Origin: Centroscyllium fabricii
Lineage: Eukaryota
Assembly (NCBI GenBank): GCA_051313645.2
Contig: JBNRSN020000010.1
Location: 199,020,001-199,084,000, forward strand
Length of the DNA stretch: 64,000 nt
Direction of reading: 5' to 3'
Shown here: positions 13,821 through 63,650 of the stretch, piece after piece
Position numbering within the stretch: the first letter of the stretch is position 1
How the letters are laid out: every line of letters begins with the position of its first letter
Made by a program: the position numbers and the translations under genes
The notes under the pieces: model-generated
Told to the model about the DNA's origin: nothing
What the model saw: only the letters and a program-made list of their open reading frames with translations
Database searches by the model: none

Positions 13821-13853
<33 letters not shown>

Positions 13854-18997: not shown

Positions 18998-19760
18998 AAA
19001 CAATTTTGAGCGAGCCGTGAGGCAGGTTTTCCGGCGGGGCGCAAAATAGAAAAACGGGGGGTCCCAACCCGGATCGCCGCGGCTTTGCAATTTCCCGCCG
19101 CCGTGTCTGCCCGCCCCGAATCTTTCCCGCCCGCGACCGACGGGAATGGTCGTTAGGCTCCTTAAGCACCCTTAATTGGCATGTATAATGCCATTTTAAG
19201 GGGCCCTTGCTATTTTCAGGTGTTCCCCACCCATAACCCGCCAGCTTGAAACCCCGCCAGTGAAACCTGGCGGGGACATAATCGGCTTGCTGAGTATCAG
19301 CTGCAAGCCAAAGAATGACATGGAATCAGCTGTACCAGAAGTCGTCCCTGGGCCGCAGCCTGCAGGAGGGCTAACTGTATCCCCAGGGTGTACAATATCA
19401 GTGAGATTATAGCTTTTTATAAACTCACCTTGCAGCTCTTTCTCATGCTTGACAGATAGCTCTGCAGCAGCTGTCAATGAAAGGGTTGTGCTGCACTTCC
19501 CATTGTAACTGACCAGCAGCTGTCAGTCAAAGGGTTGTGCTGCGCTTCACATTGTAACGGGGCTCTTGTCTTTAAACAGCCGGCACCCCGTCGACTTTCA
19601 CACTGGAAATAGTCAATTGGCAAGGGTTCCCACATGCAGGGAATCAATTGGCCAATTGAGGCAAAATTGCGTGGGTCTCCCAGGCCCTTTAACATTCATG
19701 TCAGAAACCTGACCTGCCTGAAACCCACCAATTCCCCACACCTATGGGAAAATTGACGCC
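18998..19760. mobile_element. GC-rich non-autonomous DNA element (family Y-like) in CR1
   Basis: Interrupts CR1 sequence. Inverted similarity to 54993-55824 (ccgtgagg, aaaccccgc..gtgaaacc, ttaattgg). caatttt/aaaattg near the ends. Confidence 0.55.
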
Positions 19761-28635: not shown

Positions 28636-29222
28636 TGAGGCTTCCTGCGGGTGCAAGCCTCCAACGCACACTTACGGAGAGCACCTGCCGTTCTCCTCTT
28701 CTGGGATTTGAAATCCCGATTCCAGGCCCTGCTCCAGGCCCCACGCGTCGCGCTGAGGCAACTCAGCATCAGAGTTAGTAGGGAAGCTCCGCGGGGAGCC
28801 AATCACAGGAAAGAATCCTCCATTCATAACTTTGACAGAGAGATCTGTCAAAGTTAAGAAATGGAAGAGACCCACAAACACACTAAACATTAAAATAATT
28901 TTTTTTAAACACCACATTTTTTAACATTACTATCACTAACATAAATTACCTATTTTAAACAAAAGTAAAAATGTTGAAAATATATTTTATGTTTTTAACT
29001 GGGTTAAAAAACTACTTACCTTTGTTTAAATTATTTAAAAATAAAAAACCTGTAAAAAAAACACTCCGGCTCCTGACCACCGCCCCCCCCTACCCTAGAC
29101 CCGGCATCGGAAGTGCTGGTTTTGTGCGCATGCTCGGTGCACGCACAGAACCAGCACTTCCGAGGGGCGCACGCGTGAGTACACCGTCCGTACTCGCGCG
29201 ATGTGGCCCTAATTTCTGGGCC
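28636..29222. mobile_element. Family X MITE lacking its left end
   Basis: Colinear with 43078-43823; right TIR ccctaatttctgggcc. Confidence 0.75.
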
Positions 29223-31361: not shown

Positions 31362-31902
31362 GTATTTGATTAACAACAGAAAATGCTGGAAAAACTCAGC
31401 AGGCCAGGCAACATCCGTGGAGAGAAATCCGAGTCGACGTTTCGACTCGGGACAGAAATTCGGGTTGGAGGCTTCCCGCGAGTGCAAGCCTCCAACCCAC
31501 GCTTACCTACCGCGCCGGCCATTCAGCAATGCACCCGCCTGAAATCCCGATGTTAAGCCCTCGTGAAGTGTCGGCGCGCCGCGCTCCTGGATCTGAACGG
31601 TGCAGTTAGTGCGAGATATTGCGCGGAGAGCCAATCAGAGCACAGAATGCTACATTCATATGTTTGACAGGAAGACCTGTCAAACTTATGAATACGACAG
31701 CCCCAAAACCTCAGTAAATCCTAAAATAATTTTTTTTGAATCACATTTAAAAAAATAACTTAATTACATAAATTAGCTATGATAAACAAAAATTAAAAAT
31801 TAAAAAAAAAAAAAAGTATTTAACAGGGCTAAAAAATCAACTTACCTTTCTTTAAAGTATTTAAAAATGAAAAACCTGTGGATAATTTTTTTTTAATTGA
31901 AT

Positions 31903-32640
31903 GGGCCAGAAATTCCAGTCTGCGAGCGCACCAGAGCTTAAACCCGCAGGAAGCAGCCGTTTGCGCTGCTTCAGTCATTCCTGTGCCGGCCAGCGGGGGG
32001 GTTGGAGTTCCTGCGAGGGCTAGCGCAGGAACCATCGAACTACGGGGTGCGTCCAGTCATTCCGTTTTTTAAAAAACTTTTTCTACGGACCAAGACCAGG
32101 AGATTCTACGCTGGAAAAAAGCAATCGTAAGTAGCCGCTTTTATCTGGTAAGTGTGTATTTTATTCATTTTAATTGGGTTTTTTTCAGGTTTTTAATTGT
32201 TGATAACTTTAAAGACAGGTAAGTATTTTTTTAGACCTGTTAGAAGTTGAATAATTTTTCTGTAAATTTTTATTTTTTCTTTAAAATGGGTTATTTGTGT
32301 TAGTTGAGGTAATGTTAAAAAATGTGGTGTTTTTAAAATTTTATTTTTGAGTTTAGATGTCTTTTGGTTAATCTCTCCTTTCAAAACTTGCACAGATTTC
32401 TCAGTGGAAATTTTGAACGGAGGACTGCTTCCACTGATTGGCTCCCTGCCAATCAGGTGGTCTCAAAAGCCATCTCGCACTAATTACGCCCTTCAGATGC
32501 CCATGAAGCTCGCACGGAGCTCTGACAGGCTGGGCTAACTGCAATTCCTGAGTGCAAAAAAGCAAACCTGAATATGGGCAGTTCAAGTGCAACTAGCAGG
32601 CACTGCACCCGCACGAAGGCGCCACTGCAATTTCTGGGCC
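31903..32640. mobile_element. X-related MITE (Z), 3-bp TSD
   Basis: TIRs gggccagaaattccagt / actgcaatttctgggcc. TSD AAT. Confidence 0.8.
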
Positions 32641-32892
32641 AATGAATTCACCACTTACCTTCTGAAAAGGGGTCTTTGCGCTTGAAAGAAGCAGACGTAT
32701 CTTTCTCCATACTTACCCGGATAAAAACCTGTGAAAAAAATCACAAGTGCCGCGCACCCGCTGCTGCGCACGCGTTCCGATCCCTGACCCCTTCTTTGAG
32801 GGGATCGGAAGTGCCGGAGACGCGCGCATGCGGGGTGCATGCCGAAAACTGCCACTTCCGATGGGCCTACGGGTGAGTACCCAGCGCATACT

Positions 32893-33159
32893 TGAGATGC
32901 CTCAAATCGAAGACGGCAGCGAGTTCTTAAATAAGTGGCTTTTATTAACAAGGAACTGAACCGTGTCCCCGATGAGCAAGCCCGGAATGAGAGATAAGTG
33001 GGCGGAGCATTCTCCTTTATACTAGTACCCAGAGGCGGGGTCAGCTGGTACAGGTCCTCACAGAAAGGGTACAGATATTAACAGATATATAACAAACACA
33101 TGAAACAAAACTATATACAATAACCGTACAGTGTGAACCACCCCAAAAGGTTCATCACA
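32893..33159 (-). mobile_element. Solo LTR
   Basis: TG...CA ends and 5-bp TSD atact. tataaag and aataaaa on the minus strand. Confidence 0.85.
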
Positions 33160-33687
33160 ATACTCACCCGGGGCGATCGGAATTTCTGGCTCATATATAT
33201 TTCTCTCCATGGATGCTGCCTGGCCTGCTGAGTTTTTCCAGCATTTTCTGTTGTTATTTCGGGTTTCCAGCATCCGCAGTATTTTGCTATCGTGCTGTAT
33301 TTGATTAATTGGACCTCGTGCATCATTTTCAACAGTAACAAAAGCCTTGGGTAAGGAATAACTCCCATCTTATCAATGCATTGTTTCCCCACCGCCCCGC
33401 CCCCACCTCCCCCCGCCATACACTCTTTAATGAAATGGCTCAGTAATGATGATAAATGCTAAGAGTGAGGATCTTTACATTACCGCTGCGGAGTCCCCAT
33501 TCATTTACATTAAGAATCAGAGGCACTATTTAATTAGGTCTGCTACCTGATCGAAATGACATTCAGATGCTCCCTCATGAGGAATTTGGTTCAGCCTCTT
33601 GATGGTGGAAAGCCGCAGCCTGCAGTGACTGAGTGGGGAGCTGCGGTCCGCATGGTGGGATTCAACATTACAAATAGTTCGGGGAAA

Positions 33688-35269: not shown

Positions 35270-35687
35270 TTACCAGCGTTTTGTACAGCTCCATCATAAC
35301 CTCCCTGCTCTTATTTTCTATGCCTCGGCTAATGAAGGCAAGTATCCCATATGCCTTTTTAACCACCTTATCCACCTGTCCTGCTGCCTTCCGGACTCAA
35401 TATCGAGTTCAACAATTTCAGATCATAACCTCAGACCCTATTACATTTTTACATATATTTGTTATTCACACCTTTGATTTATGCACTTCCCCCCTTTTTT
35501 CTCTCCCTCATTCTGTCAACGCATTTCACACCTAAACTAGAGCCGTCTTCTGTCTCCTCTAGTCCTATCACCATCTCGTCTCATTTTGAACACCTCGCAA
35601 TGTCTCTTCGCTTCTATTTTGTTCTTTCAGCCCCATTTCCCAGCCCCCGAACTGGCCTTTTAATCTGTTTCATTTCCTGTGTTTCTT

Positions 35688-35724
35688 CAGTCCTGACGAA
35701 GGGTTTTGACCTGAAACGTTAACT
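35688..35724 (+). ncRNA. Minimal hammerhead ribozyme motif, second PLE family
   Basis: CAGTC-CTGACGA-A-GGGT tttg ACCT-GAAA-CG-TT-AACT. Intact core, with a C.A mismatch at the base of stem I. Confidence 0.6.
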
Positions 35725-35889
35725 CTGTTTCTCTCTCCACTGATGTTGCCCGGGCCTGCTGAGTTTCTCCAGCGTTTTCTGTTGTTGTTTCGGATTTCCA
35801 GCATCCGCAGTATTTTGCTATCACACAAACAGGAAGGTCTTGGGTTCAACCCCTGTTCTGTGAGCTGATTTTAGCCAGGACCTCGGTCC

Positions 35890-43077: not shown

Positions 43078-43823
43078 GGCCCAGAAATTCGGGTCGGAGG
43101 CTGCCCGCGAGTGCAAGCCTCCAACCCACACTTACGGACCGCGCCGGCCGTTCACCACTGCGCCCGCATGAAAGCCCGATGTTGGGCTCTCCTGAACTGC
43201 CGGCGCGCTGTGCTCCTGGATTTGAGCGGCGTAGTTAGTGCGAGATATCGCGCGGGATCACGTGGTCCCCGGAGAGCCAATCAGAGCACAGAATGCTCCA
43301 TTCATAAGTTTGACAGGAAGACCTGTCAAACTTCGGAATACTACAAGCTCCAAAACATCAGTAAATCTTCAAATAAATTTACAAAAAAAAATCACATTTT
43401 TAAAAATAACGATCAATTACCCAAATTAGCTATTTTAAACAAAAATTCAAAATTTTGAAAAAAATAATTGAATTATTTAACAGGGCTAAAAATCAACTTA
43501 CCTTTCTTTAAAGTATTTAAAAATGAAAAACCTGTGGAAAAAATGTTTTAAATTGAATTAAATCACCACTTACCTGCTGAAAACCAGTCTTTCCGCTTGA
43601 AAAAAAGCAGACGTATCTTTTTCTAATACTTACCCGGGTAAAAAGCTGCAAGAAATTCGGAAGTCCATTGCGCACCCGCTGCCGCGCACGCGTTCCGACC
43701 CCTGGCCCTTTCAGGGGATCGGAAGTGCCGGTTTCGCGTGCATGCCGGAAACCGGTAATTCCGATGGGCCCACGCGTGAGTACCCAGCGCGTACTCACGC
43801 ATTGGGACCCTAATTTGTGGCCC
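43078..43823. mobile_element. Family X MITE (Harbinger-like), complete copy inside a DeuSINE
   Basis: TIRs ggcccagaaattcgggtc / gaccctaatttgtggccc. TSD AAT. Confidence 0.82.
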
Positions 43824-44142: not shown

Positions 44143-44386
44143 TAATAATAATTCAATAACTATTGTCATTATACAATGTACAAGTACATGAACAACGAAA
44201 TGTGATCTTGCAAGCTCCCAAGAATCCAGCAAAGCCGCTGCGTCTGTGCGCGCCGCCATTCCATCATTCCGACAATCTTCAGCCAACCGCCCCTCCCCGG
44301 GGCTCCTTTCGTGACCTTCTGCACCTGGTATTCCCTGGTGGTCACCCATCCAAGTACTAACCAGGCCTGGCTCTGCTTAGCTTCCA
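44143..44386 (-). mobile_element. Second 5S-headed SINE with a different body and tail
   Basis: ggaagctaagcagagccaggcctggttagtacttggatgggtgaccaccagggaataccaggtgc, then tail atttcgttgt...aatgacaata. Interrupts a CR1. Confidence 0.75.
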
Positions 44387-44994
44387 AGCCTTGCCAGTGA
44401 CCCTGTCCCTAGTCCCAGGAACAGGAACAGACCAAAGGGAAGATGAGATTTATTTTTCCGCAGCGAGTTGTTACGATCTGGAATGCACTGCCTGAAAGGG
44501 TTGAGGAAGTAACGTACAAAAGGGAATTGGACATATAAAGAAAAAAGTTGCATTTATATAGCGCTTATCACAACCTCAGGATGTCCAAAGTGCTGTACAG
44601 CCAATGAAGTACTTTTGAAGTGTAGTCACTGTTGTAATGTGGGAAACGCAGCAGCCAACATGCGCACAGCAAGCTCCCACAAACAGCGAGGTGATAATGA
44701 CCAGATAGTCTGTTTTTAGGTGTTAGTTGAGGGCTAAATATTGGAAAATAGTGCCATGGGATCTTTCACATCCGTCCGAGAGGGCAGACGGGGCCGCAAT
44801 TTAAAAATCTAATCTGAAAGACGGCACCTCCGACAGTGCAACGGAGGCTCCCTCAGTACTGCACTGGACTGTCAGCCTGAATTATGTGATGAAGCCTCTG
44901 GAGTGGGACTTGTAGGCACAAGAACTACCCACTGAGCCACAACACATAGGCTGTGTTTAAATGAATCTCTTTTACATACACCTGAGGAAGGAGC

Positions 44995-46282: not shown

Positions 46283-46904
46283 AAGAGAAGTTGATTTAAA
46301 GACAGCACATATACAAGGGCGAGAGCAATCTAATCTCTCCCACATCACACTTCAGTAGACAGACACACAGAGCAGACAAAGGTGTTTTAACGTATTTTAA
46401 CATATTAATCAGGCACCAGTCTGAGATCAATGCGGTACAGTCACAAAGGGTCAAATGTTGCAGCCTTGTGTCTGTGTGATAACACACAGAATGATTTAAA
46501 AAATATAGGTCAGCATTGGTGTATGCAGTTGGGAGTTTGGCCCCCGACAAAAAGTTAGTGCATAATACTGTACTAGAAGTTGCTGTTTCTTTAGCATGCA
46601 ATACCCCATGGTATTGTTGACTTCCAGTCTTTGGAAGGCACTTGCCAATTTTGAGGGTTTAGTGCCTTGTCTCCGACTCTTGAGCCATTGCAAATTTAAG
46701 ACTGTTGAGACTCTGAAGCTTACTGTTCCTGACAGGAGAATGGCTATTGAGTTCCATTGGAGTTCACATGCACTGCTTGCACAAGGGATAGCTGGCTCTT
46801 ACTAGCTATTGACGATGCTTTGTCTTGCTCCATCCCGACTGTGCAATCAGGGCCAGCCTCGGGGGGAAATGGCGCCCTGGGCGAACTTAGATCTTGGCGA
46901 CACA

Positions 46905-49355
46905 AAAAGAAAATACCGCAGATGCTGGAAATCTGAAATAAAAACAGAACATGCTGGAGATGCTCAGCAGGTCAGGGCAGCGTCTGTGAAGAGAGAAACA
47001 GAGTTAACGGGCTGGATTTTCTTTGGGCCATGGAGTCGGGATTGGAGGCGTGTGGGGGGTTAAAATCCCGGAATCGGCGGGGGTGGGGGGGGGGGGTGCG
47101 GGGGGCGGGTGCACAAACCCATCCCGCCCCCAACCTGCATCCATGCCAGTTTCAAAGGAGGCGGGTACCCGCCCCGCACTGAGACCCACCTCCCCGAGGC
47201 GGGAAGGGGATTAGTGCCAATTAACTGCCTGTTAACAGGTAGTTAACACGTAGTTAACAGGCGGCTTTTAGCCTAATCCCTATTTTCATTGGTGAAATGT
47301 GGGATTCCCAACGGCTCCAAACTGCGGCAAGTTAGCGAGGTGGGCCGTCGGGATGAAGGGCTTGGAGGGTTCGAGATGTCCGGTGTTCAGGTGAGTGATG
47401 GGTGCATAAGTGCAGAGGTAAGTGTGTTTGGTGTGTGTAGAGTGTTTAAAGAAGTTCTACTAACCTTTACAGCCTTCCTTCCTTCAGGTCTCGTGAGTTC
47501 CTCATCTCACCGGCACAGAAAGCAGAATGGCTGCAATCTGTCAAAAGTTCCAGCATTCAGCTTTCTGTTCCGGGGAGATCTCTAAATCAGCCTGAGAGGA
47601 AGGAATTAACCTGGAGTGCAGATTGTCAGTGTTTGACAGCTTCAAACAGCTGTCAAACGCTGATATTTCATCTGTCAAATGGTCTTGACAGGTGAAATAT
47701 CAATCTGTGATGTCACCTGTTGCCGGGTGGCCCTTAATTGGCCTGCTGAGCCCGCTGGGCGGGCCCAACAAGGTCAATCAAGTCAAAATCGCGTGGATTG
47801 GCTAGAACTCGATGGAGGCGGGACTACTACCCCAAAAGTTGTAGGCCCACCTCCTACCCGTCTCCTCAATTAAAATCCAGCCCAACGTTTTAGGTTGATG
47901 CACTTTTGTCAGAACTGGAAAAAAACAGGAAATGGAACAGATTTTTTAAGCAAGTGTAGTGGCTGGGAAATGGGGGCGGGGATGAAAGAACAAAAGGGAA
48001 GGGATAGGATAGAAGGCAGGAGAGATTAAGAGACATTGAGAGAGATTCAAGGCAGAAGAAGGTGGTAATGGGACAGGTTAAGGAACAAAGGATGGCTCGA
48101 GATGAAGTGTGAATTGCGCTGGCAGAATGAAAGACAGCTGCCCTGTGGGAAAGAAGAACAGAAGGCAAAAACAAAAACTGCGGATAAAAAATATATATAT
48201 ATGATAGGGGCCAGGTTATGATCTGAAATAGTTGGAATAAATGGGTCTTTTTCCGAGTGGCAGGCAGACAGGGTTCCACAGGGATCGGTCCTAGGACCCC
48301 AGCTATTCACAATATATATTAATGATCTAGACGAGGGAACTAGATGTAATATCTCCAAGTTTGCAGATGACACAAAGCTGGGTGGGTGTGTGTGCTGTGA
48401 GGAGGATGCCGAGAAACTCCAGTGTGATTTGGACAGGTTGGATGATTGGGCAGAAGCGTGGCAGATGCAGTATAATGTGAATAAATGCGAGGTTATCCAC
48501 TTTGGTGGCAAAAACAGGAAGGCAGATTATTATCTGAATGGCAATAGATTCGGAGAAGGGGAAGTGTAACGAGACCTGGGTGTCCTTGTGCACCAGTCGC
48601 TGAAGGTAAGCATGCAGGTGCAGCAGGCGGTTAAGAAGGCAAATGGTATGTTGGCCTTTGTAGCGAGAGGATTCGAGTACAGGAACAAGAATGTCTTTCT
48701 GCAGCTCTACAGGGCCTTGGTGAGACCACATCTTGAGTATTGTGCGCTGTTTTGGTCACCTTATCTGAGGAAGGATGTTCTTGCCATTGAGGGAGTGCAG
48801 CGAAGATTCACCAGACTGATACCTGGGATGTCAGGAATGACGTATGAGGAGAGATTGGGTCGATTGGGCTCATACTCGCTGGAGTTTAGAAGAATGAGAG
48901 GGGATCTCATTGAAACGTATAAAATTCTAACAGGACTAGACAGACTAGATGCAGGAAGGATGTTCCTGATGGCCGGGGAGTCCAGAACCAGGGGTCACAG
49001 TCTAAGGATAAGAGGTAAACCATTTAGGACTGAGATGAGGAGGAATTTCTTCACCCAGAGAGTGGTGAACCTGTGGAATTCTCTACCACAGAAGGCAGTT
49101 GAGACCAATTAATTAAATATATTCAAGAAGGAGTTAGATATATTTCTTCAGGCTAAAGGGATCAAGGGATATGGGGAGAAGGCAGGGACAGGGAACTGAG
49201 TTTGGATGATCAGCCATGATCGCATTGAATGGCGGAGCAGGTTCGAGGGGCGGAATGGCCTACTCCTGCTCCTATCTTCTATGTTTCTGTGAAATTGTTG
49301 AACTTTATGTTGGGTCCAGAAGGCTGTAAAGTGCCTAATGGAAAATGAGGTACCT
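46905..49355 (-). mobile_element. Degenerate PLE 3' end interrupted by a MITE and a CR1 (48230-49289, +)
   Basis: pLTR at 46905-47008 and 47884-48230; GIY-YIG end at 49290-49355. Confidence 0.7.
47009..47883. mobile_element. Family Y-type MITE, 3-bp TSD
   Basis: Perfect TIR GGGCTGGATTTT / AAAATCCAGCCC. TSD AAC. Confidence 0.85.
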
Positions 49356-49529
49356 TTTTATGAGTTTAAGTATGTAGGACTATCAACGAAAGTTTCAGGA
49401 ATAAAGCTGTAATCGCAAACGTTTATTTATAATTTAAATAATTAATGATATGTCATAAAAAATAATATTGCAGCTGACTGACAAATACACTAAACATTAA
49501 ATTAAGCACTAAACTAATAAATAACAATA

Positions 49530-49800
49530 ATAAATTGTTCACCAAGATATTTTGAGCCATGTCATTCTCAATAGAGAGGATGGCCAGTGAAGATAGTCTG
49601 CCGTCTCCCACGGTCGATTGCAAATATGTTTTTATGAGCTTCAAATTCGCGAAGCCCCAATTGCTGCTCACCACCAATAGAGACACGGTCAGCAGTATCC
49701 TGAGCGCTATCCACGTGGTTTGGGAACTTGCTCTAGAAACTTGAAATTTGCTCTTCTTGAGGAGTGTGACAGTCGGTTGGAAGCAGACTTCGGAGATGGC
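49530..49800 (-). pseudogene. hAT transposase dimerisation-domain remnant
   Basis: LRILLT...FANLKLIKTYLQSTVGDGRLSSLAILSIE. Confidence 0.75.
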
Positions 49801-50877
49801 CAAGTTCTTCGCAGAGGTCTACGACGTTAATGTAAGACCCTCTTAACCATGACACCCCCCACCGACCACAGCACCCTGGGTGGTCGCCCACATTGCACTG
49901 TGGATAATATTAGTTGCACCCTTTTCTTAAAGTATAAGATGCCCTGCTGTTCCCTGTTGACACACTGAGGGGCAGTCATTGCCATCATCATGTTAACAGT
50001 CGCACCTGGAAGGCAAATATCATTTAATATGTAACAGCAGGCAGGGTTGACGGCATACTGATATAATGAATGCAGTTACAACGCAAGATAAAACTAAACT
50101 TGACAAACAGTTCAAAAGCCGTGTTGAAAATGCCCAGCCCGCCGCAGATGAGCTGTGAAATTGTCTTGGCGTCTTGCGCGGTTTCGTCTGCGGGCGCCTT
50201 TTCGGAAGGAATTTGCTCGCAGTCATTCAGAAAACAGCCACAGAAGGCAGTTGAGACCAATTCATTAAATATATTCAAGAAGGAGTTAGATATATTTCTT
50301 CAGGCTAAAGGGATCAAGGGATATGGGGAGAAGGCAGGTACGGGGTACTGAGTTTGGATGATCAGCCACGATCGCATTGAATGGCAAAGGATTTCCCAAC
50401 GCCACCCTTTTAAAACTGCCCCACGGTTATTATTTTTTCTTTGTCGCTGTTAATCAGTAGCTGAGAATGGAAAGAGAGAGAATGCAAGAATTATTGCCCG
50501 CTGCTGTTCAGCCTTGTCACACGCCACAGCAGAAGCAAAACCGGGGCTCGGCAGCTTCACTGAGCTGCGGAATTGGCAGGCGTACCCCTAGTTCAGCACA
50601 CTTGGAGTTGGCCGATATCACGGCAACGTGTGGGAAGCCGACGGAAGAAGCTCCAATGTTCCTTTAATGACAGGACAGCTGGTAAAAAGAATGGGAAACT
50701 GGGAACTGAGTCAGAGGCTGCTTACAATGTGCTGTTGGACCAGTTGATCATGTTCAGTGGTATCTTTGGTAGCAACGCCACTTTTTATAAAACACTGGTT
50801 CGGGCCTCAGCTGGAGTGTCCAATTTCTGGGCACCGCACGTTAGGAAGGCTGTCAAGGCCTTGCAGCGGGTGCAGTG

Positions 50878-51133
50878 TGATACCGTATCAATGACCTCGG
50901 AGACGAGAAGTTACGAGGTGAATAAAGGCTTTTATTCGCTAAAGGTTGGGCATGCACCAGCTAGTCGACTGCTCCCGGAATGAATGGGGGGAGGGAGACA
51001 GTCACCATTATACCTGTCCTGGGAGGAGGAGTCACAGGCGGGGTTAGCATGGGCATGCCCAGACAAACAGTACACACAGAACTATATACAATATTACAGG
51101 CCGTTGGTTATATATACAAAGTGCTTTACCACA
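50878..51133 (-). mobile_element. Solo LTR, family A
   Basis: TGTGGT...ATCA on the minus strand. TSD cagtg. Inside a CR1. Confidence 0.88.
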
Positions 51134-51372
51134 CAGTGGAGATTGACCAGAACGGTATCCGGGATGAGGGATAGAATGAATTGGAGAGACTGGAGAAGCT
51201 GGGGTTGTTCTCCTTGAAGCAGAGAAGATTAAGGGGAGATGTAATAGAGGCATTCAAATCTATGAAGGGTTTTGAGGTGAGTAAATAAGGAGAAACTGTT
51301 TCCACTGGCAGGAAGGGCCAGTAACCTGAGGACACAGATTTAAGGTAAGATACGAACCAGAGGGACGATGAA

Positions 51373-52220
51373 CGTAAGAACATAAGAAGTAGGAGCCGGA
51401 GTAGGCCATACGGCCCCTCGGCCCTGCTCCGCCATTCAATAGGATCATGGCTGATCCGAACTTAGACTCACGTCCACTTCCCTGCCCGTTCCCCGTAACC
51501 CCTCATTCCCTTATCAGCTAGGAAACTGTCTATCTCCGTTTTAAATTTATTTAATGTCGCAGCTTCCACAGCTCTCTGAGGCAGCAAATTCCAAAGATTC
51601 ACCACCCTCTGAGTGAAGAAGTTCCTCCTCATCTCAGTTTTGAAAGGGCAGCCCCTTATTATAAGATTATGCCCACTAGTTCTAGTCTCACCCATGGGCG
51701 GCACGGTGGCATAGTGGTTAGCACTGTTGCCTCACAGCGCTAGGGGCCTGGGTTGAAATCCGGCCTCGGGTGACAATCTGTGTGGCGTTTTCACATTCTC
51801 CCCGTGTCTGCGTGGGTTTCCTCCGAGTGCTCCGGTTTCCTCCCACAGTCCAAAGATGTGCGGGTTAGGTTGATTGGCCATGATAAATTGACCCTTAGTG
51901 TTAGGGGGATTGAATATGTGGGGTTACGGGAATAGGGTGGGATATGTGTCGATGCAGGCTCGATGGGCCGAAATGGCCTCTATCTGCACTGTAGGGATTC
52001 TATGATCAGTGGAAACATCCTCACCGCATCCACCCGATCAAGCCCCCTCACAATCTTATATGTTTCGATAAGATCGCCTCTCATTGTTCTGAACTCCAAT
52101 GAGTAGAGGCCCAACCTACTCAACCTTTCCTCATAAGTCAACCCCCTCATCTCCGGAATCAACCAAGTGAACCTTCTCTGAACTGCCTTGAGAGCAAGTA
52201 TATCCTTTCTTAAATATGGA
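51373..52220 (-). mobile_element. CR1 3' part with short 3'UTR
   Basis: ORF2 C-terminus ...YGERAGKWT*. Confidence 0.85.
51696..52005 (+). mobile_element. HE1-like V-SINE, short-tail form
   Basis: Ends gcaggctcgatgggccgaaatggcctctatctgcactgtagggattctatga. Confidence 0.88.
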
Positions 52221-53267
52221 AACCTAGAATCGGCCTTTACTTGAGCGGACCCGCCCCCGTTCCCCCATAGGTCAGTTGGGTCAACGGGAGCCGCTCCTGA
52301 TTGGTCCGTGGGGCTGTCAATCAACAGCCCCCACAATGCCTTGCGATTTCATGCCATTTCTCTCAGTTCTGTGTTGATGGTGTTTGAATAAAGAAGTGTT
52401 TTACTTTGCTCTGCTGCTTCCTCCGTTTATTGAATATTTTAAGGTGGAAAGCTTAGGTTTCCAGTACCCTGTATAACTGCAGCAAGAGTATCCTGCTTTT
52501 ACACTCTGCACCCCTTGCAATAAAAGCCAAGATTCCATTGGCCTTCCTGATCATTCTCGATGAGGAGAATTTTTTTTTACACTGCAATTTGTTATGGTCT
52601 GGCAAGCATTGCCTGGAAGGATGGTGGAGATAGACTCAAAAGTAACTTCCAAATGGGTCTTTATCTGAAATAGAAATATTTGCAGGGCTATGGGGAAAGA
52701 GCAAGTGTGTGGGACTAATTGAGCCGGTACAGGTACGATGGGCCGAATTGCCTCCTCCTGTATGTTTCTATTCTATGATCGCCAAATGTGCGTTAAAATG
52801 GTGATCGTATTATAAGATGGGGGAACCTTTGTTTTAGGAATTAGCTTTCATTTCAGGTTAGAGAAACTGAAAATCGCTGCACATTCATTTAGTAAAAAAA
52901 AATGATTACTGATCTTTGTTCGCAGTGAAAACAATCTTTTTCTTCACCTTCTTGAGCAAAGGGCAAGTGGGCGGATCTTTAAGACATGAAAAATGTCTTT
53001 TCTTTAATGCACATCCTCTAATGCACAATGATCAGGAGAAGATGATGAAAGGAAGGCTGTGAGAGGAAAAGTTGGATAAGGAGAAATAAAACCTCTCTCT
53101 CCCTCCCATCCCCTCACAATTTCTGCATAGGTAATATGCTCATGGAGGCTGTTTTGTGGTTAGTGGTAGAGTTTCCCACCACATTAGGCCCAATATCCTT
53201 CGGCGGAGCAGGAGTAGGCCAGATGACCCCTCGAGCCCACTCCGCCATTCAGTAAGATCATGGCTGA

Positions 53268-53673
53268 TCATAGAAACATAGAAACTAGGAGCAGGAGTAG
53301 GCCATTCGGCCCTTCGAGCCTGCTCCGCCATTCAATGAGATCATGGCTGATGATCCAAACCCAGTAACCTGCCCCTGCCCTCTCCCCATATCGCTCGATC
53401 CCTATCGAGCCTGCACCGACACACATCCCACCACCCTATCCCCGTAACCCCACACATTCAATCCCCCTAACACTAAGGGTCAATTTATCCTGGCCAATCA
53501 ACATAACCCGCACATCTTTGGACTGTGGGAGGAAACCGGAGCACCCGGAGGAAACCCACACAGACACAGGGAGAATGTGCAAACTCCACACAGATAGTAC
53601 CCGAGGCTGGATTTGAACCCAGGTCTCCAGTGCTGTGAGACAACAGTGCTAACCACTGTGCCACTGTGCCGCC
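53268..53673 (-). mobile_element. CR1-tailed V-SINE inside a CR1 (53200-54350, -)
   Basis: As 22501-22902. Confidence 0.85.
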
Positions 53674-54000
53674 ATCGACCTCAACTCCACCTTCCCGCCC
53701 AATCTCCATAATCCCATGATTTCCTTCGTGTCTATCGATCTCAGCCTTGAATATACTCAATGACTGAGCATCCACAGCCCTCTGGAGTGGAGAATTCCGA
53801 GACTCACCACCCTCTGAGTGAAGAAATTCTTCCTCATCGCAGTCTTAAATGGCCAGCCCCCTTATCCTGAGACTATGACCCCTAGTTCTAGACTCTCCAG
53901 CCAGGGGAAACAACCTCTCAGCATCTACCCTGTCAATCCCCCCTCAGAATCGGATATGTTTCAATGAGATCTCTTGTCATTCTTCTAAACTCGAGAGAGT

Positions 54001-54287
54001 TTTGGTAAACCACTGTTATATATCTGTACCATATCTATAACCTTTAGCATTGTATGTATGACCCCCTCTGTGTATATATAGTTCTCCCTGTATAGCTTGT
54101 CTGGGCATGCCCGTGCTGACTCCGCCTGTGGCTCCTCCCCCCCTGGACCAGGTATAAAGGTGACTGTCTCCCTCCCCCCATCATTCAGGGAGCAGTCGAC
54201 TAGCTGGGGCATGCCCATGTCTTAGCGAATAAAAGCCTTTTATTCACCACATAACTTCTCGTCTCCGAGGTTATTGATAAGGTATCA
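54001..54287 (+). mobile_element. Solo LTR, family A
   Basis: Homologous to 50878-51133. TSD agagt; tataaagg and aataaa. Confidence 0.88.
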
Positions 54288-54992
54288 AGAGTATAGGCCC
54301 ATTCTACACAATCTCTCCTCCCAGGACAGCCCTCTCATCCCTGGAATCAATCAATCTGTTTCTTTCTCCTTGAATCACTTGGTGGAAGTTATTGTCAACA
54401 AGGAGGAGGCAGGCAGCCATTGGCCCCCCCCTTGTCTCTTCCCCTCCCGTCCGACGGTCCAAACCGCCTCCCCAGTTGGAACTATCGCTGCATTGCGGGC
54501 TCGGCGTTGGATTTCGCAGCCGCTCGGTTGCTCGCCTCACGCGCTTGTGATGAATGATTGCACAAACTAAACGATAAGCATGAAAACCCGGCCTGTTTTA
54601 TATCAGTGCACACCAGCAGGACTCGGTCCCCAGGGAGGGAGCGTGACTGTGCCCTTAACAGGTCTGCAATCCATCCTGTATTTCAGCCAAACTAATTACT
54701 TCCTCATAAAGGAAAGCAGTACCTCTGAGTGTCTTGATGGATTAACTCTACCTCTCGGAATCGTTCAGCAACCATCCCTGGGTTAGCGAGGCTCCGTAAA
54801 TTAGATTAAATGGAAGTTGTCCAGCTCCTTAAAGGGTAAATGCCCTCTCTTTAGTGGAGACATTAAGTTGCTCGCAGTTTAGCTTAGATCACCTAGATAT
54901 TTGGGTGGGATTTTATGTACTTTTCTTGCTGGTTTTCCTTCTCTCTTCTTTGCTGAAGACCTTTTACGAGGGAATGGTTCCACAAAAACTGA

Positions 54993-55824
54993 GGGGGAGA
55001 TTTCCCCGAAGGTGCGGGAACCTGGGGGAGATTGGTCGGGTCGGGTTTCTGTCCCGCCCGCCCAAGGGCCTGGAAACCCCACAAAAATTTGCTGAAATCG
55101 ATCATTTAAATCCCTGCGTACGGGGAGCCCCTTATAATTGCCTGACTCGAGTCGATAATCAAGGCACTGCAGCGGGGAGCGAGGAGCTTGACAGGCAGTT
55201 CCAGGGACTGTCTGTTGACAGTTCCCATGGAAACACTCCATTGTGACATCACAATGGAGTGCAAGCAATCGGAAAGGCCAAGTGCTTTGACTGACAGATG
55301 GACGGGCGGGCTGCAAATCTTTGACAGCTAGGGAGCGTCTCTGAATGGATCTGTCAAGGTAAGCTTTTTAAGTGTTTTCTTCACAGCTGGTCTTCACCCA
55401 AGGGAGTCACTTATACCTCCAGGGTGCTGAAGGCCTGGAAAGCATTCTGCTGTAGGTCCTTCAATACCTTGAAGGAGAAAGTGACCAAGGTCACTGTGCT
55501 CCCGCTGGGTTTCACCAGCGGGGTTTCAGGATGGCGAGGTTTGGGTGGGAAGGGCTGGAAAATAGGTGAGGGCCATTAAAATGGCGTTATCCAGACCAAT
55601 TAAGGGCCCTCAATTACTTAAACGAGCATCCCCGCCAGCGGCGGGCAGGAAATTTTCGGGACGGCGGGACACGCCACCCGAAACTGACAATCTGGCGGCG
55701 ATCCAGCAGGGTGGGGGGCATTGGGTGGGGGGGGCATTGGGTGGGGGTGGGACCACCCAGCTCTGCGATTTTAGGCCCCGCCCCACTGGAAAGCCGCCCT
55801 CACGGACCGAGGAAAATCCCCACC
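54993..55824. mobile_element. Family Y MITE
   Basis: Ends gggggagatttcc / ggaaaatccccacc. TSD TGA. Colinear with 62753-63543. Confidence 0.8.
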
Positions 55825-57809
55825 TGAGTGTTCTTCAATACCATCATGAAGTGGCTGTTGATCGGTGACTGTCTACAGGCGATTCAGCTGCGGGGCTGTC
55901 ACAGCTGGGACGACTCCTGACCGCATGTGTCAGCCGTGGCTCAGTGGGTAGCACTTTTGCCTCTGAGTCAGAAGGTCGTGGGTTCAAGTCCCACTCCAGA
56001 GACATGAGCGGACGGGCGGGCTGCAAATCTTTGATAGCTTGGCTGACACTCCCAGTGCAGTGCTGTTGGAGCGTGGCACTGTCGGAGGAGACGTTAAATC
56101 GAGGCCTTGGCTGCTCACTCAGATGGACTTAAATGATCCATAGAAACATAGAAGATAGGAGCAGGAGTAGGCCATTCGGCCCCTCGAGCCTGCTCCGCCA
56201 TTCAATGAGATCATGGCTGATCATCCAAACTCAGTACCCTATCCCTGCCTTCTCCCCATATCCCTTGATCCCTCTAGCCTTAAGAAATACATCCAGCTCC
56301 TTCTTGAATATATTCAATGAACTAGCCTCCACTATTTCACTATTTTGAAGACGGGCAGGGGAGTTCTCCCCGGTGTCCTGGGCAATATTTTTCCCTCCAC
56401 CAACAGCACTAAAACAATTTATGTAGCGTCTTTCACGACCTCAGGATGCCTCAAAGTGTGCTGCAGCCAAGGAAGTACTTTTGAAGTGAAGTCACTGTTG
56501 GTAAATTAGGGAAACGCGTCAACCAACTTGTGCACAGCAAGCTCCCACCAACAGCAATGTGATACTGACCAGAGAATCTGGGAATTTTTTTTGATGATGA
56601 TGGTTGCGGGACGAAAGTTGACCAAGAACATCCCTGCCGTCTTCAACTTGTCGGCGCAAAATGGCTGCCACGTTTGCCCAAATACCAAAAGTTCTGGATT
56701 TTGAAAAGTAGTTCGTGATATGAAGTATTTTTTGAGGCATTTTATTGCGACAACGTGGTGCATGAATTCATGGAAGTCATGAATGATGACTGCCGCCACG
56801 GTTTGGATTCTGAAAATAGGTCTTAGCCTTACCCTTGTGGCATGTTAGACCCTGCCTGGTTTTACGCTCCATTGAAGACAAAAAAGCCCAGGTCCACTGT
56901 GCAGGAAGCTAAGTCGGCGAGATCTATTCATTGTTACACCCAGGGGATCCAATTAAGAAATCGTGGTATTAAGGCTGCTGCTGAGCAATGTAGAATGTGA
57001 AAGTGATGAGAAAGATTTCAAAGACTCAGAGTTTTGAAAAATAACTGTTCACCCTTTCTTGGGGCCAAAGTTTCACAAGTGTTGCTATGGTGACTTGATT
57101 TGTGATGGTTTCCACACTGTCGCCTTGAGCCCTCGACACCTAAGGAAGTTGGTTGAACCCGGAATGGAGTTCGGAGAAGATTTGGTTGGAATAATGTGAC
57201 TTTATTTCCACAAAAATTCCGAGCATTCCCGTTCCACCATTTTATTGATCTTCCTCATATCAGCACAGGCACGATGGGCCAAATGGCCTCCTTCTGTGCT
57301 GTATGAATCTATTGTAATTGAAGAACGGGAACAGCCTATCTAAATGGAATTTTTTTTAAAATTCGTTTACAGGATGTGGGCATTGCTGGCAAGGCCAGCA
57401 TTTATTGCCCATCCCTAGTTGCTCTTGAGAAGACGGTGGTGAGCCACTGAAGGTGCTCCCATAGTGCTGCTAAGGAGGGAGTTCCAGGATTTTGACCCAG
57501 CGACGATGAAGGATGGGCTGATATACTTCTAAGTCAGGATGGTGTGTGACTTGGAGGGGAACTTGGAGGTGGTGGTGTTCCCATGCGCCTGCTGCCCTTG
57601 TCCTTCTTGGTGGAAGAGGTCGTGGGTTTGGGAGGTGCTGCCGAAGAAGCCTTGGCGAGTTGCTGCAGTGCATCTTGTAGATGGTACACACTGCAGCCAC
57701 GGTGCGCCGGTGGTGGAGAGGGTGAATGTTTAAGGTGGTGGATGGGGTGCCAATCAAGCTGGTGGCTTTGGCCTGGATGGTGTATATTGCTTGCATATAA
57801 AGTTTCACT

Positions 57810-58335
57810 TGCAATGCCCCGAGCACGTGATCTGCAGGGAGCCAATCAATGGAAGTAATCCTCCATTCATAACTTACACGGAGAAATCTGTGTAAGTTAT
57901 GAAAAGGAAGAGCTTCAAAAACACATCTAAACACAAAAATAAAATTTTAAAAACACCACATTTTTTAACAATACTCTAACTAACATGCGTAAAATAATAC
58001 TTACCTGTCTTTAAAGTAAAAAAAAATTTAAAACCTGTTAAAACAATACTTAAATTCTGTAAAATAAAGACTTACCTGCTAAAAAGGGGTGGTTACGGCT
58101 GATATTTTTAAGTGTAAAATCTTCCATACTTACCCCGATAAAGAACTCGGAAAAAAATCGGATGTCCACTGCGCACCTCCTGGTGCGCAGGCGAACGAGA
58201 TCCAGCTCGCGATCCCCCGCTGGACGGCATCGGAATTGCAGGTAGTAGCGGGAAATCGGGACCCCCCCCCCCCCCGGTTTTGCGATTTTAGGCCCCGCCG
58301 GAAAGCCGCCCTCACGGACCCGCAAAAATTAGTCC
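57810..58335. mobile_element. Mosaic X/Y MITE fragment
   Basis: Interior resembles X (agccaatca...cctccattcataact); the right end resembles Y (gcgattttaggccccgcc..gaaagccgccctcacggacc). Confidence 0.6.
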
Positions 58336-59132
58336 GATCTTCTCTACGTCTAGCCTATCGAACCCCTTCATCATTTTAAATACCTCTATTACGTCACTGC
58401 TCACCCTTATCTTTTCTAGAGAAAGGTGCCCCCGCCAGTTTAGTCTTTCCTGATAGTTATAACCTCTCAGTTCTGGTATCCCCCTTGTAAATCCGTTTTG
58501 TACACATTCTCCGGTGCCGCAATATCCCTTTTATAATATGGAGTCCTGGGGAAAGATAAATCTTGTACTTTGAGCAAAAGTGCTGACTGTAGACTTTTGT
58601 TCCTCTTTAAGGTAGACTATAAGATTGAAATAGTTCTCACAGTTGCAGGAACTTTGAGGGCTGCATTTAGTGCCAGCATTAGCCCTGGCCTGAAAGGAGA
58701 TGATGGGTAATTCCCCCATCAGTCATGCCTGGAACCTACACTGCTCTAAGTCATAGAGTCATAATGGCACAGAAGGAGGCCATTCAGCGCATCGAGTCCG
58801 TGCCGGCTCTCTGTAGAGCGAGCCAGTCAGTCCCATTCGCCCGCTGTAGCCCTGTAAGTTTATTTCCCTCAAGTGCCTATCCAGTCTCCCCTTGAAAACA
58901 TCGAGTGTCTCCGCTTCCACCACTTCCGTTGGCAGCGAGTTCCAGGTCCTCATCACTCGCTGCGTAAAAAAGTTTTCCCTCACATCCCCCCTGTATCTCT
59001 TGCCCAAAACCTTAAATCTGTGTCCCCTAGTCCTTGTACCATCAACTAGTGGGAACAGCCTGTCCCCATCTAGCCTATCCACACCCATCATAATCTTGTA
59101 CACCTCTATCGAATCACCCCTCATCACACCTC

Positions 59133-59413
59133 TGTGGTAATACGGTTTACCACCAATGTATATAGTTATCTGTACTGTAACTGCATTGTATATAGTTGCC
59201 TCTTGTGGTTGCCTCTTGCCTACCTGGGATGCCTCAGCTGGCTCCGCCTCCGGACTCCACCCACAGGCTGCCGTATAAAGGTCACAGCCCTGCTGACCTC
59301 GTGGCATTCCAGGGTCAGTTAGTAACAAGATAAGACCTGTACTCCAGTTCTTAGTTAATAAAAGCCTCAGTTGTATTCTTAACTTCGTCTTGAGTATAAT
59401 TGATCGTGCATCA
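59133..59413 (+). mobile_element. Solo LTR, family B, inside a CR1 (58750-59522, -)
   Basis: TGTGGT...GCATCA. TSD acctc. Confidence 0.9.
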
Positions 59414-59911
59414 ACCTCCTTTGCTCCAATGAAGACAAATCCAGTTTCTCCAACCTGTCCTTGTAGCTAAGATCCCCCATCCCCGGAACCATTCTGGTAA
59501 ATCTCCTCTGCACCCTCTCAAGGACTGGGATTGATTTGATGCGCATAATTTATATTCTGCAAGTATCCTCCACTCAGTGCACTTTGCTGGAGAAATCCTT
59601 CTGCTTTTACGGGGATAAGTTGCTGAGTTCCATTTTCTGCTGCAGGTGGTCATCGACTCCTTTTAAATAGATTTTGTTTTGCTTTGCTGAGGACAAGCTG
59701 TATGTCCCGCCCCACCTCCAGTTCATTGGCTGACACCGTGGTGACAAAAGACTCTCCAAAGTTGAGAGTTTCGATTGTGCTTCCAGACACGTATCTCTTG
59801 CACATGCGGTTGAGTTTATTTTTCAAGCTTTCATGCCGAAGAGATTTCCGTTGGAGGGTCTCATTCAGCTCTGTGCCATGTGGTATCAATCCACAGGTCT
59901 ACAAAGCGGTA

Positions 59912-60627
59912 GAAATATAGAAACATAGAAGATAGGAGCAGGAGTAGGCCATTCGGCCCTTCGAGCCTGCTCCGCCATTCAATGAGATCATGGCTGATCT
60001 TTGGCTGATCTTTCAAGTTCAGTACCCCGTCCCCGCCTTCTCTCCGTAACCCTTGATCCCTTTAGCCTGAAGAAATATATCCAATTCCCTCTTAAATATA
60101 TTTAATGAACTGGCCTCCACTGCCCTCTGTGGCAAGGAATTCCACAGGCTCACCACTCTCTGGGTGAAGAAATTCTTCCTCATATCTGTCCTAAATGGTT
60201 TACCCCTTATCCTTAGACTGTGGCCCCTGGTTCTGGACTCCCCCGCCATTGGAAACATTCTTTCTGAATTTAACCTGTCCAGGCCTGTCAGAATTTTATA
60301 TGTTTCGATGAGATCCCCTCTCAATATTCTAAACTCCAGCGAGTACAAGCCCAAACAACACAATCTCTCCTCGTAGGTCATTCCTGCCATTCCAGGTATC
60401 ATCCTGGTGAATCGCCGCTGCACTCCTTCCATGGCAAGAACATCCTTCCTCAGATGAGGCGACCAAAACTGTACACAATACTCAAGGTGTGGTCTCACCA
60501 GTGCCTTGTACAGCTGTAGTAAGGTATCCTTATTCCTATACTCGAACCCTCTTGATATGAAGGCCAACATAGCATTTGCCTTCTTAACCGCCTGTTGCAC
60601 CTGCATGCTCGCCCTCAGTGACTGGTG
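59912..60627 (-). mobile_element. 5'-truncated CR1
   Basis: Open ORF2 C-terminus (60019-60627). Confidence 0.92.
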
Positions 60628-61301
60628 CTTTGGCCTGAATTCCCCCCCCCCCCCCCCCCCCCCCCCCACTACTCCCTGCCCCGGCCACCCAGCGGGTTCC
60701 CTATCTCAGTCAGGTCATCAATCCCAGAGGTGCAAGATCTAGTTAGAGCTGAGTGCCTCGTGATATTACGTGCCATGTCTCCTCCAGATGGTTTAAGTTA
60801 AGGTGAATGCCAAGTGATCTTGTGCACATCACTGTTTAACCATAGCTGCACACAAATGCAGGTAAATAAAAACCATTTATATAGAAAGAATTTAGCCAGG
60901 CTAAAGCAAATTGAATGGGCTTGGTCCTTCTGAGGAACCTCGTCCTACCCCTGGGACCTGGCTCAGACAGTGATCCGTGGAGGCAATTGCATTGAGTTGA
61001 ATGTAAAACCCTCTCAAACTACGGTGTTACATAGGGAGCAGAGGGTAGAAAATAAATAAGTTTGAAATCTGGAATGTACTGTCACCTTAAGTAGATCAGC
61101 CGATCACAAAATGAAAACTTGACTTTAGGCCCTAAGCTCTGGAATTCCTTCCCTAAAACCTCTCCGCTTCTCGTTCCTCCTTGAAATCACTTCTTAAAAC
61201 CCATCTCTTTGACCAAGCCGGTCTGAATATCTCTGGATGTGGCTCAGGGTCAAACCTTGTCTGCTATCGCTCCTGTGAAGCACCTTGGGATATTTTACTA
61301 T

Positions 61302-61591
61302 TGTGGTGATACAGTTTACCACTAATGCTGTACTGTATATAGTTATCTGGACACTAACACTGTATTATACATGGTTACCTCTTGTCCACCTGAGGTCTAC
61401 CTGGGATGCCTTCAGCCGGCTCCGCCTCCTGGCTCCACCCACAGGCTGCCGTATAAAGGTCATAGCCCTGCTGACCTTGTGGCATTCCAGGACCGGTTAG
61501 TAACAAGACAAGACCTGTACTCCAGTTCTTAGTTTATAAAAGCCTCAGTTGTATTCTTAACTTCGTCTTGAGTATAATTGATCGTGCATCA
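61302..61591 (+). mobile_element. Solo LTR, family B, inside an L2 tail
   Basis: TGTGGT...GCATCA. TSD actat. Confidence 0.9.
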
Positions 61592-62214
61592 ACTATGTTA
61601 AAGGTGCTATATAAATGCAAACTGTTGTTGTTGTTGTTTACTCTTTGATGAAGTAATAGGCGACCCGCGCTATTCTGAAATGTTAGGAACGTGGCTTTAT
61701 GTTGAGCCTGCTGACTCTTAGAAAGCTTGACACATGTTGAGGCTGCTGTGTAAGATGAATTAAATTCTTCCCCTACCATTGCATTCTTAAACTGGAGCAA
61801 GTCAAGTTGCTATATAGGCAGAGGAGTTAATGCGTCTTTCTCTTGCACAGCAAGCAGTCCTGTCATTAACTGGTTTCCCATAATCCCACTGGTCTGGGGG
61901 TTGGATTGACGTCATCAGGACATCAATCAGCAACAACAGAACATCCTCCTCTGTTAACTGCTTGACGTACTGGCTGAACTTTCCCAGTAGATGTACAGAA
62001 TGAAGGCTGAATGCTAATTACTCTTTAACGCAAAAGTAATTTTAGCTGCTGGCGTGTGCTTGGGATGCTCTAGGGTGGGGTGGCATGGTGCGATGTTATG
62101 TAAGCAGTTTAGATGAGTGAAGACCCATAAAACTTGCACGATGGCTCTTAACCCTTTCTACCCTGGCCATGCTCCAAATTGCACCCGAGTTCTGATTCAA
62201 CCGAACATGTGAGA

Positions 62215-63650
62215 GACGCGAAATAACAACAGAAAATGCTGGAAAAACTCAGCAGGCCAGGCGACATCCGTGGAGAGTGAAACAGAGCCAACGTTTCGGG
62301 TCGGGACCCTTTGTCAAGACTGAAAGAGCAAGGAAATGAAACAGATTAGAAGGCCAGTAGGGGGCTGGGAGAGAACAAAGAGAAGAGAAGAGACATTAAG
62401 AGGTATTCAAAGCGGGACGAGTTGGTGATAGGACTAGAGGAGACAAAAGACGGCTCTAGATTAGGTGTGAAATGTTCTGGCAGAATGAGTGACAGCTGCC
62501 ATGTGGGAGAAAGAAAAAAAAGGAGGGGGAGGGCCAAAACAAACGTGTGGATAAAAAAATCAGTAAAAATATAATCGGGGCTGAGGTTATGATCTGAAAT
62601 TGTTGAACTCGATATTGAGTCCGGAGGGCTGTAAAGTGCCTAATCGGAAGATGAGGTGTTGTTCCTGGAGCTTACGCTGAGCTTCTCCGTGGGACAATGT
62701 AAAAGGCCGAGGACTTTTTCAGTCTTGACAAAGGGTCCGGACCCGAAACGTTGGTGGGGGGGTGATTTCGCCGGAAGGGCGGGAACCTGGCGGGGATTGG
62801 TCTGGGCCGCCTGCCCAAACAGCTGGGAAGGCCACGCAATTTTAGTTTAATTAGGTTGTTAAATCCACGCCGGCGGCAGCGGGAGGTAATTAGGTCAATC
62901 GAGTCGGGCTGCATCGGGGCTGCGAGGAGTTTGATTGACAGTTCCAGCACTGGTTGTTGACAGTTCCCATGGAAACACTCCACTGTGCCATCACAGTGGA
63001 GTGGAACCAATGGGTACAGTCAAGTGCTGGTGACTGACAGGTGGGCGGGCGGGCCCAGAATTCTTGACAGCTCGCAGCGGCTGTGAGGAAATGTTCAGAA
63101 CTGAGATTTCTCAGTTTCTGCTCACAGCTGCTGCAGCCACAGCGGAGTTACTTACTCCTCTAAGGTGCTGGAGGCATTCCAAGCATTTGGCAGCATGTCC
63201 TTCACACCTTGAAGGAGAAAGTTATAACCAGTGCTGTGCTCCCGCTGGGTTTCACCTAGCGGGGTTTAAGGTGACGGGGTTAGGGCGGGAAACAGGGCAA
63301 AATGGCTGAGGGCCCTTAAAATGGCATTAAAGATGCCAATTAAGGGCCTTTAACGAGGTGACAACCCATCCCCACCGGCCGGCGGCGGGAAGGTTTCGGG
63401 GCGGGGAATCTGGGCGGGGGAAAATGAGAAAGCGGCAGGGATACGGCGGGGGTGAGTGGGACCTGCCGGTTCCGCTATTTTGCCAGCCGGGCCGCCAAAA
63501 ACCCCGCCTCATGGGGCCATGAAAATCCCCCCCCCCGCCCCCCGTTGACTCCTATTTCTCTCTTCACGGATGTTGCCTGGCCTGCTGAGTTTTTCCAGCA
63601 TTTTCTGTTGTTATTTCATATTTCCAGCATCTGCAGTATTTTGCTATCGT
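62215..63650 (-). mobile_element. Penelope-like element with inverted pLTR
   Basis: Minus-strand EAQRKLQEQHLIFRLGTLQPSGLNIEFNNFRS* plus pLTR (62215-62715). Inverted pLTR at 62716-62752 and 63544-63650. Confidence 0.8.
62753..63543. mobile_element. Family Y MITE inserted at the hammerhead cleavage triplet
   Basis: G-rich/C-rich ends (gggtgattt / aaaatcccc). TSD GTT at 62750-62752 / 63544-63546. Confidence 0.8.

Follow-up and report, generated by a model that had tools for sequence, protein, structure and literature searches.

Why should two transposons lie in exactly the same three nucleotides of a ribozyme motif? The question is raised by a stretch of 64,000 nucleotides from Centroscyllium fabricii (assembly GCA_051313645.2, contig JBNRSN020000010.1, positions 199,020,001 to 199,084,000 of the forward strand). 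The whole stretch is called the window below, and coordinates count from its first letter. It is repeat-dense vertebrate DNA with CR1-like reverse transcriptase frames and 5S-derived repeats. In it, two MITEs (miniature inverted-repeat transposable elements), Y1 and Y2, landed on the same GTT of hammerhead motifs in copies of a Penelope retroelement. It is reasonably likely that these two unrelated Harbinger-type MITEs, inserted independently, hit this GTT because the stretch around it resembles a generic palindromic Harbinger target and is very high-copy. The site would then be a hotspot of nested insertion, not the object of a ribozyme-directed attack. The features at the two sites, together with an empty copy, are given here; pLTR stands for the Penelope pseudo-long terminal repeat, TSD for target-site duplication, TIR for terminal inverted repeat and NUH for the cleavage triplet.

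46910..47008, minus strand: part of pLTR copy A lying 3' of the NUH, from an older-looking subfamily; 47006-47008 is one TSD copy
47009..47883, no strand assigned: Y1 MITE, 875 bp, TIR GGGCTGGATTTT (12/12), TSD AAC (GTT on the ribozyme strand)
47884..47917, minus strand: 5' part of the copy A hammerhead, with helix I 5' strand, degenerate core, stem II, AAAAC and GTT
47918..48234, minus strand: Penelope 3' fragment of copy A upstream of the hammerhead, 74% identical to 62388-62605 and 65% to 35410-35720
62220..62345, minus strand: inverted twin pLTR with an empty hammerhead at 62286-62321 (NUH 62290-62292); its tail is 92-94% identical to the twin
62587..62718, minus strand: frame with the C-terminal tail of a Penelope open reading frame (ORF), ending in …LQEQHLIFRLGTLQPSGLNIEFNNFRS and a stop
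62721..62752, plus strand: 5' part of the copy B hammerhead; GTT at 62750-62752 is both the NUH and the first TSD copy
62753..63543, no strand assigned: Y2 MITE, 791 bp, TSD GTT, ragged poly-G/C ends
63544..63650, plus strand: remainder of copy B, with the second TSD copy, the helix I 3' strand (GACT) and the rest of the pLTR
35689..35822, plus strand: empty pLTR with canonical core CTGACGA...GAAAC-GTT-AACT, NUH 35718-35720

The junctions can be read directly. AAC at 47006-47008 is followed by GGGCTGGATTTT...AAAATCCAGCCC, the two ends of Y1 with a 12/12 TIR, and then by AAC at 47884-47886. Y2 is flanked by GTT at 62750-62752 and 63544-63546. On the ribozyme strand both sites read AAAC-GTT, MITE, GTT-RACT and fall in the same alignment column. 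The original prediction, that both MITEs duplicate the hammerhead GTT in separate pLTR copies, is borne out in coordinates and TSDs. Its reading of the inverted twin pLTR as the empty site also holds, the sequence there being GAAAC-GTT-GGCT, and a further empty site is found at 35718-35720 on the plus strand. A coding remnant was looked for in Y1 and none was found; Y2 was not picked up by a strict TIR scan of the window.

In minimal hammerheads the NUH comes directly after GAAAC and helix III is almost nil. Since the GTT directly follows this box, it is the cleavage triplet. Every minimal hammerhead box (core, stem II, GAAA, NUH and helix I) is present at 35689-35724, stem II forms in the predicted fold, and an ORF tail lies upstream of the pLTR. 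By its boxes, then, this stretch is a Penelope minimal hammerhead, a predicted ribozyme. An Rfam scan of the window did not detect a hammerhead, and the monomer folds no better than shuffled sequences (z-scores -0.56 and 0.38). Both results are expected, because the motif is thought to work as a dimer. The canonical core CTGACGA occurs in the window only at 35693, and neither interrupted hammerhead has it: the copy at 47 kb reads CTGACAA...AAAAC and the twins at 62 kb TTGACAA. Copy A is 78-86% identical to other pLTR copies.

The frame at 62587..62718 is presumably the tail of the Penelope endonuclease. Three eukaryotic homologues were found among eight candidates (72-79% identity), one with a precomputed PF26215 match; Pfam scans of the frame itself were blank. 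Metazoan Penelope-like elements are described as carrying a type I minimal motif in the pLTR, with a palindromic 15.2-16.2 region, mostly in solo copies, and some pLTR copies occupy opposite strands at a distance of 100-700 bp (Cervera and De la Pena, PMC4209133). The hammerheads of the window resemble that set in the type I minimal motif and the opposite-strand copies. They differ in being interrupted, as the sections of PMC4209133 drawn on here do not mention insertion into the motif. A U3-A8 core variant is among those described there, and the TTGACAA core of both 62 kb twins (62286-62321, minus; 62721-62752, plus) fits this covariation, either as a subfamily trait or through CpG decay. A pLTR stub at 16825-16925 starts at AAACGTT, thus begins at the ribozyme, and has before it 20 nt of the pLTR tail in inverted orientation.

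Could the two insertions be one event that was copied? The original prediction had raised the possibility that MITE and pLTR were amplified as a single composite. When Y1 and Y2 were aligned, they shared only matches of 10-27 nt (E of at least 0.02), and their host pLTRs are 84% alike. Because the MITEs cannot be aligned and the hosts have diverged to this extent, the insertions are, on sequence comparison, independent, and a single amplified composite is excluded. Two parts of a third type of element, called X, are likewise 71-75% alike, against 89% for their pLTRs. No point in favour of a composite was found; it is refuted for both Y copies, and one ancestral unit is hardly conceivable.

Further MITE copies in the window allow the family and its targets to be judged.

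54993..55824, plus strand: Y2-family MITE outside pLTRs, TSD TGA, site AAAAAC-TGA-GTGTTC with 8/12 flank matches; its flanks have no second copy within the window
19005..19760, minus strand: another MITE of the Y2 family, its third copy, within a CR1-like fragment; AAATAC-TTT at the left flank, a degraded right end and no empty counterpart in the window
43078..43823, plus strand: X MITE inside another repeated element, TIR GG(C/G)CCAGAAATT, TSD AAT; the host repeat also occurs empty, at 3914-4026, 44635-44744 and 56509-56599
31449..33192, plus strand: X element between inverted twin pLTRs that are 97% alike (31371-31448 and 33193-33293), placed about 5-8 nt to the 3' side of the NUH
31903..32640, minus strand: X MITE nested in the preceding element, TSD AAT
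28637..29222, plus strand: X element with its right end against a pLTR, at position +6 relative to the NUH; the left end is missing beside a 19-bp tandem array

Y2 is 72% identical to 54990-55664 and to 19015-19274. Four of the six readable insertion sites in the window lie outside the NUH, in agreement with the earlier remark that copies with TSDs TGA and AAT occur elsewhere. X MITEs had also been reported to abut the same pLTR region at 29222, 31449 and 33192. All three ends do adjoin pLTRs; they lie about 5-8 nt 3' of the GTT, however, not at it, and 31449 and 33192 are two ends of one element rather than separate MITEs. None of the X-pLTR junctions has a verifiable TSD. Single TIR ends at 5467, 30250, 39817, 54593 and 54903 have neither partner nor TSD and were excluded from all counts, and matches of a de novo TIR scan at 24773 (twice), 37270 and 53478 were dropped as chance.

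What kind of transposon are these MITEs? Exact 3-bp TSDs (AAC, GTT, TGA, AAT and AAT) flank all five elements whose two ends are intact. In three elements, TIRs of about 12 bp start with GG, as is typical of PIF/Harbinger elements, and match at 12/12, 11/12 and 10/12 positions; the Y2 copies are ragged. No Pfam match above the cut-off was obtained for 11 MITE frames. The assignment to PIF/Harbinger made in the original prediction is supported by the 3-bp TSDs and by an extended target preference. The preferred target of vertebrate Harbingers is a palindrome of 15 bp centered on the 3-bp TSD. An extended preference, of 15 bp in vertebrates, is also described for the superfamily in PMC2836001. 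Like other PIF/Harbinger MITEs, those of the window are short and non-coding, with TIRs, 3-bp TSDs and an extended target. They depart from the norm in TIR length, usually 25-50 bp in Harbingers (PMC9179366), and in that no autonomous partner is seen in the window.

The target of the Y1 family can be estimated from public data. Positions 46760-48080 were compared with four public contig sets, from 20 runs listed. In one, run X15, the unique left flank was matched without differences at depth 11.7, and the sample is probably the same species. Summed depths of MITE and pLTR are near 1e6 in that run, which is not a copy number; both are very abundant, and the Y1 MITE has a very high summed depth in all four runs. 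In run X15, 345 contigs (median length 255) reach the left end of Y1, before 47009, from other flanks. Their consensus, with an agreement of 0.39, ends AGACACATT, that is, AGACAC-ATT after an A/T-rich stretch. A and T make up almost all of its distal 21 letters, which include none of the pLTR's 9-11 distal G/C letters. This is one plurality consensus from one end of one family in one run. The Y1 flanks are thus heterogeneous and share a generic Harbinger-like motif, AGACAC-ATT, which is not the pLTR. A target-specific transposon would have most copies at one site; here the agreement is 0.39 and 4 of 6 window sites lie elsewhere. Searches for the pLTR pattern gave no matches in viral, metagenome and genome contigs, and those for the hammerhead-plus-TIR junction none in metagenome contigs. 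The Y1 MITE and the pLTR are also abundant in three further organisms (runs X19, X20 and X11), and run X19 contains the orthologous flank running into the pLTR. The Y1 family, the pLTR family and this Penelope copy appear, from these matches, to be older than the species.

The zebrafish element Harbinger3_DR has the target AAACACCWGGTCTTT, that is, AAACAC-CWG-GTCTTT (PMC3016246). The Y1 left flank AGACAC resembles both its AAACAC and the mirror of its GTCTTT. Unlike in Harbinger3_DR, the central triplet is ATT/AAT-like and not CWG. These data give a first estimate of the target motif for abundant Harbinger-type MITEs in a shark-like genome; Harbingers are described as absent from the elephant shark in PMC9179366, which calls other cartilaginous fish untested.

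The hammerhead DNA itself, (T/C)GAAAC-GTT-RACTC(T), matches this motif. Scored against the 15 positions of AGACAC-(ATT/AAT)-GTGTCT, it reaches 8-10, with scores of 9, 9, 9, 10, 8 and 8 for the six NUH sites that the window had before insertion. A score of at least 9 occurs at 431 of about 63,500 window positions (0.7%). In two long empty Penelope fragments the NUH is joint first of 481 and joint third of 431 positions, and the register at +6 is within the top ten in one. Equal scores are also reached elsewhere in Penelope, at offsets -157/-171 and -105/-119. Sites outside pLTRs have the same half-site: AAAAAC-TGA-GTGTTC (8/12), ATCAC-ATT (6/12) and AAATAC-TTT.

The mechanism would be as follows. 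A transposase may read the conserved GAAAC box as a half-site. Because the NUH directly follows that half-site, the TSD falls on it, and the 3 bp duplicated would necessarily be the NUH. The pLTR also has a GTTTC(T) box facing GAAAC nine bases away, which would give two 3-bp registers, 0 and +6. Both appear to be used, the second of them at 29222 by an X element. That helix I is lost in these copies would be a by-product within already truncated elements.

Why, then, not an attack on the ribozyme? The original prediction was that a group of MITEs preferentially targets and disables it. This is not supported, given heterogeneous Y1 flanks, the generic AGACAC-ATT motif and the four of six sites elsewhere. 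A conflict in which MITEs were selected to strike the cleavage triplet would account for a TSD that is exactly the NUH and for an insertion that displaces the helix I 3' strand. However, transposases act on DNA, and most Y1 flanks are elsewhere. The pLTRs that were hit are all truncated and ORF-less, and thus nothing active was disabled. No Penelope ORF of at least 150 aa is present in the window, and the cores were already non-canonical. Moreover, anole Penelope insertion in vitro is reported not to need hammerhead cleavage (PMC11167929). Inter-element conflict is very improbable.

Does the motif suffice to explain the hits? If insertion were uniform, about 60,000 positions with 6 NUH sites among them would hardly ever yield two of five insertions at the NUH, and the NUH is among the element's best-scoring positions, so some hotspot is expected anyway. 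Several points nevertheless weigh against a hotspot made by motif and copy number. Under 18 settings of the consensus model the NUH is only 5-62-fold enriched and receives 0.05-0.6% of insertions. The probability of at least two hits in five is then 2e-6 to 4e-4, uncorrected for the later choice of the window out of a large scan. With the copy ending at 19760 included, at least two of six has a probability of 3e-5 to 6e-4, and with the X abutments counted, at least four of seven falls below 1e-7. The crude motif thus under-predicts the window, unless the NUH ranks higher in the true matrix or selection has picked out an outlying window; a real target matrix is poorly represented by a consensus. 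Symmetry of the motif, and its use by Y2 and X, are assumed, and the site at 31903 fits poorly (3/12). In simulation, opposite-orientation pLTR junctions make up less than about 10-15% of Y1 left flanks (A=T 0.285-0.30), a soft bound that rises to about 20% at A=T 0.32 and covers one orientation only. It is loosened further if contigs collapse recurrent repeat-repeat junctions.

Other contig measures carry little weight. The small number of strand-change joints was rejected as a bound on inverted insertions, since even empty-site joints reach a depth of at most 446; with the best 15 of 272 listed, that table has almost no power. None of the 32 listed pieces crosses 47008/47009, which is uninformative beside 231,696 others. 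The 24 listed loose ends, beside 3,321 others, give no bound on same-orientation insertions.

The under-prediction, by one to two orders of magnitude, would be removed by a real hotspot beyond the linear motif. In it, several percent of all X and Y insertions would be drawn, by the hammerhead DNA or by a preference that has evolved, to a dispensable repeat of high copy number as a safe harbour. Features that could act in this way are the facing GAAAC/GTTTC repeats, the AACGTT and GTTAAC palindromes, the stem II hairpin and the inverted-twin pLTRs. If 5-10% of insertions genome-wide fell there, the window would be unremarkable (P 0.02-0.11), and such a share is compatible with the simulated bound. 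Both inverted twin pairs of the window have a MITE in the sense twin. The flank consensus, however, is a generic Harbinger-like motif with no mimicry of the pLTR, four of six readable sites are elsewhere, and the sample is tiny and selected. Such a hotspot is possible but doubtful. A little more doubtful still is the fuller proposal that the Penelope hammerhead receives several percent of the copies of several shark Harbinger MITE families, well above what the target matrix predicts, as a preferred safe harbour whose conserved GAAAC box keeps the target from drifting. If enrichment beyond the motif is true, a DNA transposon joins the small set of elements with a preference for another mobile element.

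Chance with ascertainment would instead make the site mildly favoured and the window a rare double hit that was picked. At a genome-wide share of 1-2% the probability of at least two in five is 1e-3 to 4e-3, reachable among many windows. The X abutments lie near the usual starts of Penelope stubs (the stub at 16849) and may not be insertions into pLTRs. Yet this account requires that the X cases be dismissed, and the NUH scores too well for no hotspot to be expected; it is unlikely. The shared site is probably a real nested hotspot, represented by two exact events and two nearby abutments only.

Nested hotspots of this kind are known. Levy, Schwartz and Ast (PMC2836564) class 82% of insertion types as non-random, and in their data most types of nested transposable element use fixed hotspots. 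For instance, the hAT element MER1 inserts at positions 154 and 160 of MIR3. The pLTR site is similar in that a DNA transposon occupies fixed positions of a high-copy repeat, and the two positions are 6 nt apart in MIR3 and lie at 0 and about +6 here. It differs in that the host position is a ribozyme cleavage triplet, and in scale, with hundreds of thousands of events there and 2-4 here. The meaning of the locus is likely that an RNA-level constraint, on the GAAAC box of the hammerhead, conserves a site in the DNA where an unrelated transposon can land, a known phenomenon. Dada DNA transposons reportedly target small-RNA genes, another case of a mobile element landing in multicopy RNA-related sequence. 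Dada is said to be strictly target-specific, whereas the Y1 flanks are heterogeneous. In the open-licence literature, no title was found on Harbinger insertion into Penelope hammerheads.

Several other features of the window were observed. Without the X element, the twin pLTRs at 31371-31448 and 33193-33293 would make up a near-perfect palindrome around a loop of 4 nt (…GAGTCGA-CGTT-TCGACTC…), and the sense twin appears to start at GACTC, the hammerhead cleavage position. The same X element holds an insert of about 270 bp (32893-33160) with TG...CA ends and a 5-bp duplication ATACT, which looks like a solo long terminal repeat. AGGTAAGT occurs in X elements as its reverse complement. In the X element at 28637, a C-rich 19-bp array (25528-28635, 164 copies) takes the place of the left end. 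Within Y1, positions 47380-47490 (plus strand) have intron-like signals: GTGAGT/GTAAGT donors, a CTAAC branch, a pyrimidine tract and CAG.

A 34-bp array at 12135-13288 is very uniform (34 copies, 98% matches). Two elements at 30471-31075 and 34677-35273 are 89% identical, with TIRs of 58-60 bp that start AGGCCCTGTCACAC and are not Harbinger-like; each has T/A-rich 4-bp flanks and lies within a CR1-like fragment. A 415-bp element at 29336-29750 is near-palindromic, its 107-nt arms being 93% complementary. Finally, 5S rRNA-derived heads stand beside CR1-like sequence at 13786-13900 and 44316-44432 (minus strand) and are probably SINE3-type repeats.

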